From Treponemataceae bacterium (GTDB taxonomy: Bacteria; Spirochaetota; Spirochaetia; Treponematales; Rectinemataceae), in assembly GCA_963677895.2 (NCBI GenBank), contig CAXXGJ010000021.1, forward strand, positions 65,736 to 129,735: DNA of 64,000 nt, read 5' to 3'. The position numbers and the translations under genes are program-made. Shown in pieces: positions 38,783 to 51,860 of the stretch (position 1 is its first letter; every line of letters begins with the position of its first letter). The notes below the pieces were generated by a model that saw only the letters and a list, made by a program, of their open reading frames with translations, was not told the DNA's origin and made no database searches.

Positions 38783-39937
38783 ATGTCGAAAGTCAAAACG
38801 ATTTCCCAGCAAACTCCCCATAAAAACGACGGCTCGCTCGATACGCTCATCGACGAAGCCTTGCTCGACAGGACCTTTCCCGGCATCGCATGCGGGCTAT
38901 GGATCGATGGACGGCAGGAATATGTCAGGTACGCGGGATTCACCGATCCGGATAAAGAAGGAACTGCCGGGAATACCCCCATCTCAGGTAAAACCTTGTT
39001 CGACGCGGCTTCGCTCACCAAGCCTCTCGCGACCTCGCTGCTCGTCCTGAAGGCTTGCGAGGCGGGCGTCATCGACCTGAACGGAACCTTGGGGCAGTAC
39101 CTTCCCCGCGAGAATCCCCGGGCGCGGAACATACCCATTCATAGCCTTCTGACGCATACGAGCGGATTGCCCGCCATCCCCTCCATCGAACGCCGCTTCC
39201 CCTCGCCGCTTTCGATCGACAGGGAGGCCGCCGTTTCTGAGCTTTGCTCAATTCAGCCCGAGAAAGGCCACGGGGAGGCGGTCGTGTATTCCTGTACGGG
39301 GTATATGCTTCTTGGCCTTGTCCTGGAAAGGATATCAGGGATGCTCCTGGGAGATCTTTACAGAACCGAGGTCGCCGAGCCCCTGCGTCTGCCGCGAGCC
39401 GCCTTCGCCCCTGGCATCGGCCCCTCCGGCGAACCTCTGGACATTAAGGATGCCGCCGCGACCGAATACTGCGGATGGAGGAAGAAACGGATTCGCGGCC
39501 AGGTCCATGATGAGAGCGCCTATTGTTTCGGCGGTCACGCAGGCAACGCCGGCCTCTTTGTCTCGCTCGAAGACGTATACAGGACAGCTTCCATTCTGCT
39601 GGAAGGAGGCGTCTCCGGCGGAAAACGGTTCCTCGGGGAGAACTTCGTTCGCGATCTCACTACGGATAGGACCCCCAAACTAGGGGAGCGACGCTCTTTC
39701 GGCTTCAGGATGAAGGAGCCGGAGACTTTTACGGGTCCGCTATGGCCTGCTTCATCCTTCGGGCATACGGGATTCACGGGAACGAGTCTCGCCGTCTCGC
39801 CGCGGCAGCGCCTGATCGCGATCATCCTCACGAACCGAGTGTATTACGGCAGGAACGAGACGACGCAAAAAATCGCCGATTTCAGGACGAGATTCCACAC
39901 GCTCGCGTTTCAGTTCAAGGCTTCGAACAGCTTCTGA
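38783..39937 (+). CDS. Serine hydrolase, beta-lactamase/AmiE-like family
   Basis: SxxK (ASLTK), LLTHTSGL, YSC, GQVHDE, GHAGNAGLF, FGHTGFTG. Confidence 0.88.
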   Translation: MSKVKTISQQTPHKNDGSLDTLIDEALLDRTFPGIACGLWIDGRQEYVRYAGFTDPDKEGTAGNTPISGKTLFDAASLTKPLATSLLVLKACEAGVIDLNGTLGQYLPRENPRARNIPIHSLLTHTSGLPAIPSIERRFPSPLSIDREAAVSELCSIQPEKGHGEAVVYSCTGYMLLGLVLERISGMLLGDLYRTEVAEPLRLPRAAFAPGIGPSGEPLDIKDAAATEYCGWRKKRIRGQVHDESAYCFGGHAGNAGLFVSLEDVYRTASILLEGGVSGGKRFLGENFVRDLTTDRTPKLGERRSFGFRMKEPETFTGPLWPASSFGHTGFTGTSLAVSPRQRLIAIILTNRVYYGRNETTQKIADFRTRFHTLAFQFKASNSF

Positions 39938-40968
39938 GCGAATACAGCCGACGTTTCCCTGGGGCAGAGGAACACCACGGCGCAGGGATCGTCGCAGTCC
40001 AGCTCGATCACGTCGAGTCCAATCGTCCGCACTGATTCCCGAGCCTGGACGACGCCTTTCGCGCCGGCCGCCGCGGAAAAGACCGCGGTCACGCGAAGCT
40101 TGTTCCCTGGTCCGGAGCATGTGGCGAGCCCGAGGAAATCGGGAACCTCGGCACCGTTGGATGCGGGTCCGATGAGCGTGCCTTCGCCGTCATCGAAAGT
40201 GGAACGCACGCGCATCTTCAGGCCGCTGGCCTTGGCCAGCAGGGCGGACTTGTCGTGCAGCACTCTCGCGCCATGATTCGCCAGCCTGAACATGGAGTCA
40301 TAATCGAGGAATTTCATGAAGGGGACGCCCTTCACGAGCCGCGGATCGGCCTTGGCCACGCCGGGGACATCTTTGTAGATATCGACGAAATCGGCCCCGA
40401 GCGCCGCCCCAATCGCGACGGCGCTCGTGTCGCTGCCGCCTCGGCCGAGGGTGAGTATGTTGCCCATGGCGTCGACGCCCTGAAAGCCCGTCACGACGGG
40501 AACCTTCCCGGCCGCAAGCACTGCCTTGAGACGCGCCGGGCCGATCGCCGAGGGCGCCGCGTCCCCGAAGGGACCTCTAGCCGTAATTCCGGCCGAGTGC
40601 GCCGTCATGGGAACGGCTCCGATGCCTTTGGAATTCAGGAGGGCCGCTATCACGCAGGCCGAAATGACTTCTCCGCAGGAAGCTAAAAGGTCGCTGGTGA
40701 GCCCGTCCATGCCGCCAGCCGCATCGGCGGCTGCGGCGGCGTCGGCTGAGCCCGCGCCGTCCGCTGTGCCTGTGCCGCCGGAATATTCTCCCAGCAGATC
40801 GAGCAGCGTATCGGTGGCGTAGGGATCTCCCCTCCGCCCCATCGCGGAAACGACGAGGACGATTTCATCCCCAGCTCCGCGCGACGCGCCGACTTTTTTC
40901 GCGAGCATATCTCTCGCGGCGGGATCAGCCAGCGAGGTTCCGCCGAATTTCTGAACGATCAACGCCAT
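39910..40968 (-). CDS. Aspartate kinase (DapG-like, short C-terminus)
   Basis: VQKFGGTS, VSAMGRRGDPYATDTLL, TLGRGGSDTSA, DVPGVAKADPR. Confidence 0.88.
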   Translation of the reverse strand: MALIVQKFGGTSLADPAARDMLAKKVGASRGAGDEIVLVVSAMGRRGDPYATDTLLDLLGEYSGGTGTADGAGSADAAAAADAAGGMDGLTSDLLASCGEVISACVIAALLNSKGIGAVPMTAHSAGITARGPFGDAAPSAIGPARLKAVLAAGKVPVVTGFQGVDAMGNILTLGRGGSDTSAVAIGAALGADFVDIYKDVPGVAKADPRLVKGVPFMKFLDYDSMFRLANHGARVLHDKSALLAKASGLKMRVRSTFDDGEGTLIGPASNGAEVPDFLGLATCSGPGNKLRVTAVFSAAAGAKGVVQARESVRTIGLDVIELDCDDPCAVVFLCPRETSAVFAQKLFEALN

Positions 40969-41990
40969 CTATAGTTTCCTTGGTTCGAGTCCCCGCGCCG
41001 CGAGGCACTCGGCGATCTGGACCGCGTTGAGGGCGGCGCCCTTCCTGAGATTGTCCGACACCACCCAGAGGTTGAGTCCGTTGGGCACCGTCGGGTCCCT
41101 GCGGATCCGTCCGACGAACACCTCGTCCGGCCTTCGCAGTCCAGGGCCGTAGGATACACCAGGTTCGCCGGATCGTCCATCACGAGCACCCCGGGCGCCT
41201 TCTTCAAAAGCTCCACCACCTCGGCCAGCTCGAAGGGCTTCTCCGTCTCGATGTTGATCGACTCCGAATGCCCTCTCGTCACCCCGATGCGCACCGCCGT
41301 CGGGCTTACCTGGATGTTCGGGTCCAGCATCTTGTGCGTCTCGTGCACCATCTTCATCTCTTCTTTCGTGTACCCGTTGTCCAGGAATACGTCGATGTGC
41401 GGCAGGGCGTTGAAGAGTATCTGCCTCGGGTAGACCGCCACCGTGAGGGGCTTGCCCTCGGTGTATTCCTTCGCCTGGTTCTGCAGCTCGGCGATGGCCG
41501 CCGCTCCCGTGCCCGAGACCGCCTGATAGGTCGCGACGACGATCCGCTTGATCTTGAAGGCGTCGTGGATAGGCTTGGCCGCCACGAGCATCTGGATGGT
41601 CGAGCAGTTGGGGTTGGCGATGATGCCCTTGTGCCAGGCCAGATCCTGGGGATTGACTTCGGGGATGACGAGGGGGACCTTGGGGTCCATGCGCCACTGG
41701 CTGGAGTTGTCGATGACGATGGCGCCTTCCGAGGCCGCCGCCGGAGCGAGGATTTCGCTGGCCTCGGCGCCCGCCGAGAAGAGAGCGATGTCGACATCGC
41801 CGAAGGCGCCCGGCTTGGCCGCCCTCACCGTTTTTTCCACGCCCTTGAAGGTCACTTTCTTCCCCGCCATGGCCTCGACATCCATCGGGATGATCTCCGA
41901 TACCGGAAAGTCCCTCTGTTCGAGGGTTTTCAGCATTTCCGTGCCCACGGCGCCCAGGGCGCCCACCACCGCGACTCTATAGGATTTCAT
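40969..41990 (-). CDS. asd: Aspartate-semialdehyde dehydrogenase (frameshift near 41130)
   Basis: [32 protein letters not shown]; the C-terminal VGRIRRD...[16 protein letters not shown] is in the next frame. Confidence 0.92.
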
Positions 41991-50735: not shown

Positions 50736-51758
50736 TTATTTGATCGCCCCGACTTCTTTATAGTACTTTACGGCACCTGGATGGAGGGGAACCTGCACCG
50801 CGGTCGCGGTGGTTTTCGGATCGAAAACAGAGTAGCTCGAACCCATCTGAACGAGGAAAGCCTTGTTCTCGTTGAGAATCTTGGCCAGGGTGTAGGCGAC
50901 GGCGTCGGACATCTTGGGGCTCACGAGGATCTCGGTGGCATGGGCCATGGCCTGGATGTCGTTCGGCATGCCCGTATAGGTGCCGCCCGGCACGATGGAC
51001 AGACCGGAGGCTCTGGTGACGAGGCCCATCGTCGCGGCGAAGTGGTCGACGCAGGCGTCGCTGACGGCCATGAGGGTGGAGGGGCGGCCGAGCGCCATTT
51101 CCATGATGATGGCGGCGGGAAGGCCTACGCAGGTCAGGGCGTAATCGACGTGCCTGTCTTTATAGAGGCTGGTCATATCGCCATAGATGGCCTGGGTGAA
51201 GGTACCGCCGTTCTTCTTGATCATGTCGTAGGAAGCGCCGTAGTAAGCCAGTACATTGCCGATGAGCACGTACTCGGAAGTGCCCGTCATGGGTCCGGCG
51301 ACTTTGAGCTTCTCGCCGTTCTTTATCTTCTTCGCGAACTCCTCGAAGGTCGAGACGTTCTGATCCTTGGCCGCGAGGAAATGATAGCGGTCCGCAGACA
51401 GGGCTCCGGCGATGGAGGCGATGTTCGTGTAGGCTTTCTTGAAGAGCGGCGCCTCTCCCTTGTAGGCCGCCTTATCCAGCCAGGCGACGCCCCAGGCTAT
51501 ATCCGCATCGCCCTGAGCGAGGAGGATGGGGTTCGTGAGTCCGCCGCCCGGGACTACTTTGATGGTGATGCGGGGTTCTTTTTCGTTCACGAGGTTAGCG
51601 AAGCCGCCAGCAACGGTGTACCATCCACCGCCCATGCCTCCAGCAACCCACGTATAAGTGGCCGGCTTGATATCTGCCGACGCGCCCTGCGCGACAACTG
51701 TCCCGAAAGCAACGCATAGGAGTAGAAGGACGATGGCCGCTTTCTTGAAATACACCAT
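50736..51758 (-). CDS. TAXI family TRAP solute-binding protein
   Basis: Signal peptide; AGGMGGGWY, PGGGLTN, VPGGTY, VPLHPGAVKYYKE. Confidence 0.92.
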   Translation of the reverse strand: MVYFKKAAIVLLLLCVAFGTVVAQGASADIKPATYTWVAGGMGGGWYTVAGGFANLVNEKEPRITIKVVPGGGLTNPILLAQGDADIAWGVAWLDKAAYKGEAPLFKKAYTNIASIAGALSADRYHFLAAKDQNVSTFEEFAKKIKNGEKLKVAGPMTGTSEYVLIGNVLAYYGASYDMIKKNGGTFTQAIYGDMTSLYKDRHVDYALTCVGLPAAIIMEMALGRPSTLMAVSDACVDHFAATMGLVTRASGLSIVPGGTYTGMPNDIQAMAHATEILVSPKMSDAVAYTLAKILNENKAFLVQMGSSYSVFDPKTTATAVQVPLHPGAVKYYKEVGAIK

Positions 51759-51787
51759 ATGTGGCTCCTTGTTAATATACTTCCGCT

Positions 51788-51860
51788 ACTCTTCAGCGGA
51801 TGAGTGATGATAAGTTGGTTTTTTCGCGCTGTCAATATTTTTATTTATTTAACTTTTACT
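51788..51860 (-). promoter_or_regulatory. Sigma70 promoter plus operator of the TAXI operon
   Basis: Minus strand TTGACA-N17-TATCAT, AT-rich upstream tract, ACTC-N10-GAGT at 51788-51805. Confidence 0.75.

Follow-up and report, generated by a model that had tools for sequence, protein, structure and literature searches.

Gene content and organization of the cluster

Positions 39910 to 51835 of the DNA analyzed here (64,000 nucleotides of contig CAXXGJ010000021.1 of assembly GCA_963677895.2, hereafter called the window) carry a gene cluster that combines an importer and a flavin/Fe-S dehydrogenase with dapA, asd and an aspartokinase gene. An initial annotation of this DNA had described 13 genes on the same strand, and all of them were indeed found on the minus strand with matches to the families named. 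Their order is TAXI solute-binding protein, fused TRAP permease, a racemase-like protein with two cysteines (PRK07475), FCD regulator, DAO-family flavoprotein, a second FCD regulator, BFD protein and dapA, followed by the Fer2_4, Pyr_redox_2 and Fer4 genes, asd and aspartokinase. They had also been portrayed as mostly overlapping or abutting: 10 of the 12 junctions overlap or measure at most 15 bp and the other two measure 82 bp and 170 bp, the distances at asd being taken from a frameshifted open reading frame (ORF). dapA is inserted between the BFD gene (5-bp gap) and the Fer2_4 gene (overlap). In the direction of transcription, the features are as follows.

51807..51835, minus strand: promoter-like site P1, TTGACA-17-TATCAT, 11/12 consensus matches
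51788..51805, no strand assigned: palindromic operator-like site O1, ACTCATC-N4-GATGAGT with one mismatch, immediately following P1 and predicted to bind the FCD repressor
50736..51758, minus strand: TAXI solute-binding protein (TIGR02122, 142.6 bits, above cut-off)
48743..50653, minus strand: fused TRAP permease (TIGR02123, 555.8 bits, above cut-off)
48019..48750, minus strand: two-Cys protein of the Asp/Glu/hydantoin-racemase fold (PRK07475; Cys87 and Cys208 invariant), accessory
47257..48003, minus strand: duplicate FCD regulator, with 79% identity to the second FCD protein
47183..47211, minus strand: promoter-like site P2, TTGACA-17-TACTAT
47164..47181, no strand assigned: operator-like site O2, with one mismatch, immediately following P2
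45875..47086, minus strand: DAO-family catalytic (beta) subunit with GLRP arginine (R333) and GHEGDG motif
45153..45878, minus strand: FCD regulator, conserved copy (family match)
44867..45151, minus strand: BFD-like [2Fe-2S] subunit (Cys15, 17, 50, 55)
43932..44861, minus strand: DapA of the dihydrodipicolinate-synthase type (TIGR00674, 284.7 bits; residues and tree), probable start at Met18
43576..43935, minus strand: Fer2_4 [2Fe-2S] (gamma-type) subunit, C-X4-C-X2-C-X12-C
42486..43586, minus strand: FAD/NAD-binding (alpha-type) subunit, two GxGxxG motifs
41977..42489, minus strand: [4Fe-4S] ferredoxin-like subunit (family match)
40959..42014, minus strand: aspartate-semialdehyde dehydrogenase asd_B (TIGR01296, 365.8 bits, above cut-off), frameshift near 41126
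39910..40968, minus strand: DapG-like aspartokinase (profile match), no detectable ACT domain

The asd gene is frameshifted near codon 297. An extra base at position 41126 is present in the contigs of three of four public sequencing runs, contigs that may include the near-identical second asd of contig C18, while the fourth run has no coverage there. Since three of the runs contain this base and the gene is intact in the relative G050, the frameshift is probably an assembly error.

A Pfam scan of the 66 ORFs of the window gave no match to dapB, dapD or dapF, as had been claimed. The accompanying claim that lysA is missing holds in that no gene scores above the cut-off, but one LysA-like gene does exist: a member of the LysA/ornithine-decarboxylase family at positions 25241-26512 scores 157 bits, where the lysA cut-off is 298.

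Promoter-like sites and a predicted cluster-specific operator

Two sigma-70-like promoters were detected, one before the TAXI gene and one, located in the 170-bp gap together with an operator, before the flavin gene; each is followed by the palindrome ACTCATC-N4-GATGAGT with one mismatch. This palindrome is found at two sites in the 3.5-Mb genome, both of them in the cluster, and at none in shuffled sequences; it is not present at the housekeeping lysine operon. With up to two mismatches allowed, the 183 loci contain 27 matches, 25 of which precede cluster genes. The operator stands ahead of asd in locus L060, and between divergent genes for an aldehyde:ferredoxin oxidoreductase (AOR) and the flavin subunit in L164 and L199. 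From its position, we infer that an FCD protein binds the predicted operator. The regulators encoded at the loci are of the FCD or the PrdR-like type. A search of 401 Bacillota genomes for the exact operator returned five matches, none near cluster genes, and these were taken as chance occurrences; terminator-like sites above background were not found.

Conservation in spirochaetes and Bacillota

Close orthologues of the flavin subunit are present in 18 of the 69 genomes, and in 8 of the 21 genera, of the host's family. A comparison of gene neighborhoods, suggested in the initial annotation, showed that the gene order is conserved: all 17 of the 17 relatives fetched are collinear, seven with the full order, one without the racemase-like gene only, and nine up to the ends of their contigs, and eight of the 17 extend from the TAXI to the kinase gene. 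Among the relatives examined, two FCD genes occur only in the window and in its closest relative. Outside the family, a single one of 400 sampled Spirochaetota genomes matched. Members of the flavoprotein family were found in 26 of 401 sampled Bacillota genomes (20 loci fetched) and in 18 of the 34 genomes of the class to which genome G430 belongs (19 loci fetched). The cluster-bearing organisms are anaerobes of two phyla, Spirochaetota and Bacillota. Cultured bacteria named as sources of members of the beta-subunit clade include Koleobacter methoxysyntrophicus, Flintibacter hominis and Biomaibacter acetigenes. The Bacillota clusters are rearranged relative to the spirochaete order, and clusters differ in gene order and in the type of importer (TAXI or SSF).

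The linkage of the flavoprotein to DapA was counted over the loci from the host's family, from Bacillota and from the G430 class together with 80 metagenome loci. A locus was regarded as informative when at least 2.5 kb of downstream sequence was available (45 shorter loci were dropped); the counts include near-duplicates and kin that are not independent. In the window's clade (clade support 1.0), 27 of the 28 informative loci have a gene for a true DapA no more than 7 kb away; the corresponding numbers are 12 of 18 loci for a second clade and 0 of 49 for other DAO clades. Within the window's clade, dapA is the tightest partner of the beta subunit (27/28, versus 17/28 for asd). Collinear order, common operator and DapA linkage rule out a chance merger of genes, the outcome that the initial annotation had tied to an unconserved order and to the dap genes being the only ones in the genome; a separate housekeeping set is present as well. 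We conclude that the gene set is real, co-regulated and widely conserved.

The TAXI, TRAP and racemase-like genes are only 64-76% identical to those of G050, which belongs to the same genus, as compared to 98-100% from dapA to asd. This low identity, the duplicate FCD gene and the second promoter suggest that the front module (47257-51835) has been exchanged.

Many genomes of the G430 class possess two paralogues of the beta subunit, one with a racemase-like gene and the other with an SSF transporter gene and usually dapA (L165, L166, L171, L202, L203, L205, L207, L208, L210, L213); in two genomes of this class, the paralogues are adjacent and have one common set of electron-transfer genes.

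Housekeeping lysine genes of the host

The host is a Rectinemataceae-like spirochaete with a genome of 3.5 Mb that is 92.8% complete. The housekeeping set for which the initial annotation had proposed to look does exist, in the form of an asd-aspartokinase-dapB-dapA-dapD operon on contig C18; lysA and dapF are on contig C17, and a further kinase gene adjoins that for homoserine dehydrogenase. The dap genes of the cluster are therefore extra copies. The two DapA proteins are 36% identical, and the cluster DapA groups with Bacillota enzymes.

dapA is gone from the housekeeping operon in 8 of the 10 family genomes examined at dapB (one of the eight loci is cut upstream of the kinase gene), and the cluster DapA is the sole match above cut-off in four of five family genomes tested. 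The fifth, G033, retains dapA and the kinase gene but not the rest of the cluster, and a second, weaker DapA match is present there. Its cluster remnant (L191:8446-11993) consists of genes for an amidohydrolase, DapA and an ACT-less kinase, with no importer or dehydrogenase genes, and its housekeeping operon is without dapA. In 13 of the 34 genomes of the G430 class, no DapA other than the DAO-linked one scores above 300 bits, and each of these 13 has dapB at another place.

dapB is present in 61 of the 69 family genomes and in 18 of the 18 that carry the cluster. The DapB-independent route out of 4-hydroxytetrahydrodipicolinate (HTPA), offered by the initial annotation as an alternative, is thereby weakened. 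Lysine synthesis without dapB was also considered as a contrast, and it could not discriminate because no cluster-bearing family genome is without dapB. The Bacillota genome G872, whose completeness is not given, has the cluster and no dapB match.

Contig C18 also carries the second asd (G000:C18:164-175 kb; L008:9668-19642), which is intact and shares 97.5% DNA identity with the asd of the window. It ends a unit of thiamine pyrophosphate (TPP) enzyme, aminotransferase and asd genes beside GntR, TRAP and TAXI genes, and thus belongs to another Asd-recruiting importer cluster. In the housekeeping operon of the family, proC directly follows dapD (L010:7346-8155), and proC is found a few kb from dapA in several Bacillota genomes (L204, L211, L212, L229, L231, L233, L240, L241).

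DapA, Asd and aspartokinase

The synthase residues T44/T45, Y107, Y133, R138, K161, G186, D188 and N248 (E. coli numbering) are present in the DapA of the window and in every aligned cluster DapA, whereas the DapA-fold genes of hydroxyproline clusters (n = 4) have neither R138 nor N248 and branch apart in the tree as a clade of their own. By sequence, the cluster DapA is of the true synthase type. Its TIGR00674 score (284.7 bits against a cut-off of 206.15) was not used as proof of this identity, given that a hydroxyproline-cluster gene also passes (237.3 bits). Such a gene of Bacillus badius (L254:10658-11548), annotated as dapA, passes TIGR00674 without possessing R138 and N248. Since DapA keeps the synthase residues and is, in several genomes with a dapB gene, the only copy to reach a full score, the metabolite common to the cluster and the lysine route is likely HTPA, and the cluster DapA probably makes this compound when needed.

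The kinase has kept its catalytic motifs. No ACT match (E 0.1) was obtained in nine of nine cluster copies, as against matches in three of four controls, with the proviso that about 90 residues follow the kinase domain and could hold a degenerate ACT domain. Bacillota clusters often contain AOR where the spirochaetes have asd: asd occurs in 19 loci and AOR in seven, never both in one locus, although asd is mostly spirochaetal and the events are therefore few. The presence of AOR in place of asd points to the oxidation of an aldehyde, and mutual exclusion is what would be expected of two ways to oxidize the same one. Chemoreceptor genes are found at two loci of the window's clade. The ACT-less kinase, the exclusion of asd and AOR, and the surroundings of importer, regulator and chemoreceptor genes favor a catabolic direction. 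The initial annotation had let DapA, Asd and the kinase run backwards; the kinase and the asd/AOR exchange speak for this proposal, in which the direction itself remains inferred.

Dehydrogenase, racemase-like protein and importer

The beta subunit belongs to the DAO family (PF01266, 227 bits) and adopts the DAO fold (template-modeling (TM) score 0.84 to 4ysh and 1y56) at 26-27% identity to solved members; the alpha and beta subunits have N-terminal GxGxxG motifs (GAGVNG, GAGPAG). Conserved motifs particular to the beta subunit are CDDMILLQSKK, STRE and GHEGDG. It does not contain the Arg-X-Trp FMN motif, R327-T-F329 being aligned with R-T-W of 1y56_B, and its AGLRP segment aligns with AGYYA in 1y56_B and with SGIRP in the glycine oxidase 4ysh. 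Such an arginine is characteristic of glycine oxidase and absent from the sarcosine-oxidase-like site of the archaeal L-proline dehydrogenase. The subunits had been assigned to the family of dye-linked L-proline, D-hydroxyproline and opine dehydrogenases and HcnABC. Their family matches are those of a heteromeric flavin dehydrogenase, but the beta subunit is of the D-hydroxyproline/glycine-oxidase rather than the archaeal L-proline type. The active-site lysine K55 was considered as a marker for dicarboxylates and dropped, since hydroxyproline-type subunits have it too.

The gamma motif C-X4-C-X2-C-X11-12-C is formed by Cys69, 74, 77 and 90; its definition is that of PMC4575208. A motif resembling the alpha motif C-X-C-X15-20-C-X4-C is found here on the separate BFD gene, but with a spacer of 32 residues.

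The racemase-like protein has an Asp/Glu-racemase fold with two invariant cysteines (Cys87, Cys208), and its best fold matches are arylmalonate decarboxylase and hydantoin racemase (TM score about 0.6). A single-sequence search of the PDB gave no match and profile matches were weak, so that fold and Atlas data support the superfamily only. The gene is present in 17 and missing in 11 of the 28 informative clade loci and accompanies other DAO clades in 29 of 49 loci; for these reasons, we regard it as accessory. The best PDB relatives of the TAXI protein have E-values of 1e-17 or weaker, and no ligand was assigned from them.

The PRK07475 family recurs with related DAO subunits and TAXI or DctM-like transporters in loci that also contain TPP-, PrpD-, AcnX-, IlvD- or alanine-dehydrogenase-family genes (L075, L082, L086, L087, L119, L174-L177), which may represent further uncharacterized imino-acid pathways.

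Comparison with known systems

In the L-hydroxyproline pathway, the epimerase LhpA, the D-hydroxyproline dehydrogenase LhpBEF and LhpC, the deaminase of Δ1-pyrroline-4-hydroxy-2-carboxylate (Pyr4H2C), act together; S. coelicolor SCO6289-6294 is an example (PMC6608401). The cluster resembles this pathway in its racemase, heteromeric flavin/Fe-S dehydrogenase, DapA-fold enzyme, aldehyde oxidation and GntR/FadR-type repressor. It differs in that its racemase has the Asp/Glu fold (PF01177/PRK07475) instead of PF05544, which among the loci examined is limited to L120, L131 and plasmid clusters; its DapA is of the true synthase type (R138, N248-P249) and shares 23-29% identity with genes of the deaminase type; in place of an aldehyde dehydrogenase it has Asd and the kinase, or else AOR, and none of the 13 genes matched Aldedh; and there are an extra 4Fe-4S subunit and a split BFD gene. 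The different racemase family, the true DapA and the missing aldehyde dehydrogenase rule out the hydroxyproline pathway proper.

With OdhABC, HcnABC and the archaeal dye-linked L-proline dehydrogenase (PMC4575208; 1y56), the cluster shares the alpha, beta and gamma families, the FAD motifs, the gamma [2Fe-2S] motif and the DAO fold, whereas its beta subunit has Arg-Thr-Phe for Arg-X-Trp and motifs of its own. The spoVFAB-asd-dapG-dapA genes of Bacillus (bioRxiv 10.1101/803486; PMC9024752) encode the same three enzymes; DapA and Asd of the cluster are of the Firmicute type, and DapG is the best model of its kinase. Unlike this system for dipicolinate synthesis, the cluster has an importer, a repressor and an ACT-less kinase and is found in a non-sporulating host; none of the 13 genes matched SpoVFA or SpoVFB.

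An anaerobic fermentation of dipicolinate was described by Seyfried and Schink in 1990 (as cited in PMC9826295, PMC8048543 and bioRxiv 803486), and according to our own balance, its reported products fit a pyruvate half and an aspartate half. The enzymes of anaerobic dipicolinate breakdown were still unknown in 2022; the compound makes up 5-15% of spore dry weight and serves to count spores in sediments (PMC9826295). Consistent with the initial annotation, no description of the present gene combination was found in the literature searched, a search whose scope did not extend to most subscription papers and supplements.

A reverse lysine-biosynthetic route as the proposed function

With the scales tipping slightly in its favor, we propose that the conserved gene set imports a pyridine- or piperidine-2,6-dicarboxylate and degrades it by operating DapA, Asd and the kinase in reverse. 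Dipicolinate is our leading, albeit tentative, candidate for the substrate, and it is possible at the same tentative level that these are the genes of the anaerobic dipicolinate fermentation, with a DAO-family complex as pyridine-ring reductase, lysine biosynthesis in reverse, and ATP formation by aspartokinase. The TAXI-TRAP system would import the ring dicarboxylate, and the five-part flavin/Fe-S complex would perform a two-electron step at the ring carbon adjoining the nitrogen. Dipicolinate would be reduced in this step to dihydrodipicolinate with NADH or ferredoxin, and its hydration would yield HTPA, which DapA would cleave by a retro-aldol reaction into pyruvate and aspartate semialdehyde. 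Asd and the unregulated kinase would then convert the semialdehyde to aspartate, NADPH and ATP, whereas in Bacillota its oxidation would fall to AOR. The configuration of a stereocentre would be set by the racemase-like protein, a dispensable component, and part of the dihydrodipicolinate may also feed the housekeeping DapB. By our own balance, ring reduction, reverse DapA, oxidation of semialdehyde and pyruvate, and reduction of the aspartate half would be redox-neutral for the reported fermentation products. A ring 2,6-dicarboxylate is thus retained from the initial annotation, but starting from plain piperidine-2,6-dicarboxylate, one more oxidation would be needed to reach the DapA product, and the oxidation envisaged there would have to be a reduction in the case of dipicolinate.

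A number of observations weigh against this proposal. Both substrate and direction are predictions. Reduction of the pyridine ring, hydration and reversal of DapA are each uphill, steps that ferredoxin derived from AOR or pyruvate and the pull of Asd plus kinase or of DapB could offset, and we know of no flavoprotein of the DAO type that reduces a pyridine. The nearest annotated relatives of the beta subunit (29-35%) belong to hydroxyproline clusters, and its active-site motifs are common to DAO clades without DapA and therefore do not point to a special chemistry. Family members with a described activity oxidize amines (PMC4575208, PMC6608401). The racemase-like gene occurs in 17 of the 28 loci even though dipicolinate, being achiral, could enter the redox step without prior racemization; L061 and 6 of the 18 loci of the second clade are without dapA; and the host genome, as far as it is complete, gave no aspartase match. 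Finally, genomes in which the cluster DapA is the only one indicate that it also works forwards, which feeds the biosynthetic alternatives discussed below.

If the reverse route is true for any substrate, DapA, Asd and aspartokinase would have a part in catabolism and in making ATP, and a function could be given to a large family of flavoproteins from anaerobes that at present are wrongly labeled as sarcosine oxidase or hydrogen cyanide synthase. If dipicolinate is the substrate, organisms feeding on necromass would be able to subsist on the chief small molecule of endospores. The regulon supplies named genes, an operator and a short list of substrates, and the dipicolinate question is thereby directly testable.

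Alternative explanations

A reduced hydroxy ring as substrate, counted within the reverse route, strikes us as conceivable though doubtful. Here, 4-hydroxypiperidine-2,6-dicarboxylate or 4-hydroxy-diaminopimelate would be epimerized and its D-centre oxidized to HTPA, the entry point for reverse DapA, Asd and kinase. The sequence of racemase, dehydrogenase, DapA-family enzyme and aldehyde oxidation is that of PMC6608401, and the GLRP arginine and GHEG[AD]G motif are as in hydroxyproline-cluster enzymes. A single oxidation, pulled downhill, would be enough, and judged by the chemistry of the beta subunit, direct oxidation of 4-hydroxypiperidine-2,6-dicarboxylate to HTPA would be the best fit. 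This entry is, however, at odds with the 11 of 28 loci that lack the racemase gene. To our knowledge, neither hydroxy compound has a natural source, which also weighs against it, and the titles and abstract openings of the papers listed in a search named none.

We consider it unlikely that the dehydrogenase frees aspartate semialdehyde, or aspartate and pyruvate, from an N-linked compound, with DapA as a forward sink to lysine. Such a function would agree with loci where AOR or asd is present and dapA is not (L167, L171, L207, L217), with the many genomes in which the cluster DapA is the only synthase, and with the second importer cluster of the host (L008), which recruits asd without dapA; but an enzyme that oxidizes a carboxylate-bearing carbon would presumably be unable to free the semialdehyde directly, and dapA, not asd, is the tighter partner.

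Another explanation would be capture: an unrelated operon for imino-acid or opine utilization might have taken up the dap genes, whose sole role would then be in lysine synthesis. Loss of the housekeeping dapA from several cluster-bearing genomes, the persistence of dapA in genomes such as G033 and many of the G430 class where the rest of the cluster is missing, and the dapB, dapL, lysA or ddh genes that adjoin L051, L065, L068 and L218 would agree with capture. The host keeps both dap sets, however; dapA and asd take different positions in differing gene orders behind the same operator; AOR replaces asd; and none of the 49 loci of other DAO clades contains a true dapA. We therefore judge capture to be improbable.

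Equally improbable is forward biosynthesis, in which kinase, Asd and DapA would make HTPA for the complex to oxidize to dipicolinate or reduce to a piperidine dicarboxylate. The product would act as a chelator, osmolyte or electron sink and be taken up again through the importer. This direction is thermodynamically easy, the kinase is DapG-like, and 33 of the 34 genomes of the G430 class are without an spoVFB match, with spo0A above cut-off in four of five tested. On the other hand, spirochaetes are not known to sporulate, the Bacillota genomes G151, G227 and G872 have both spoVFB and the cluster, many genomes of the G430 class have dapA without an adjoining DAO gene, and an importer, a regulator of the FCD or PrdR-like type and AOR are typical of catabolism.

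We find it very improbable that diaminopimelate or plain piperidine-2,6-dicarboxylate is oxidized to tetrahydrodipicolinate, from which DapB in reverse or another turnover would yield dihydrodipicolinate. Diaminopimelate is abundant in necromass, a D-specific enzyme would yield the L-imine, and dapB or ddh stand beside four loci, but dapB is near only 3 of the 28 loci, the host has lysA, and reversal of DapB with NAD(P)+ is strongly uphill.

Neighboring genes

The amidohydrolase gene at positions 51920-53507 of the window is broken across two frames, the copy of the relatives being intact with about 530 amino acids, and an MFS and an ABC permease ORF (33192-34484 and 35399-36796) also appear frame-disturbed; scattered one-base assembly errors are therefore likely. 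A serine hydrolase of the beta-lactamase fold (38783-39937) is encoded convergently with the kinase gene, beside a sugar-type ABC importer, and similar genes are found near the cluster in L037 and L051.

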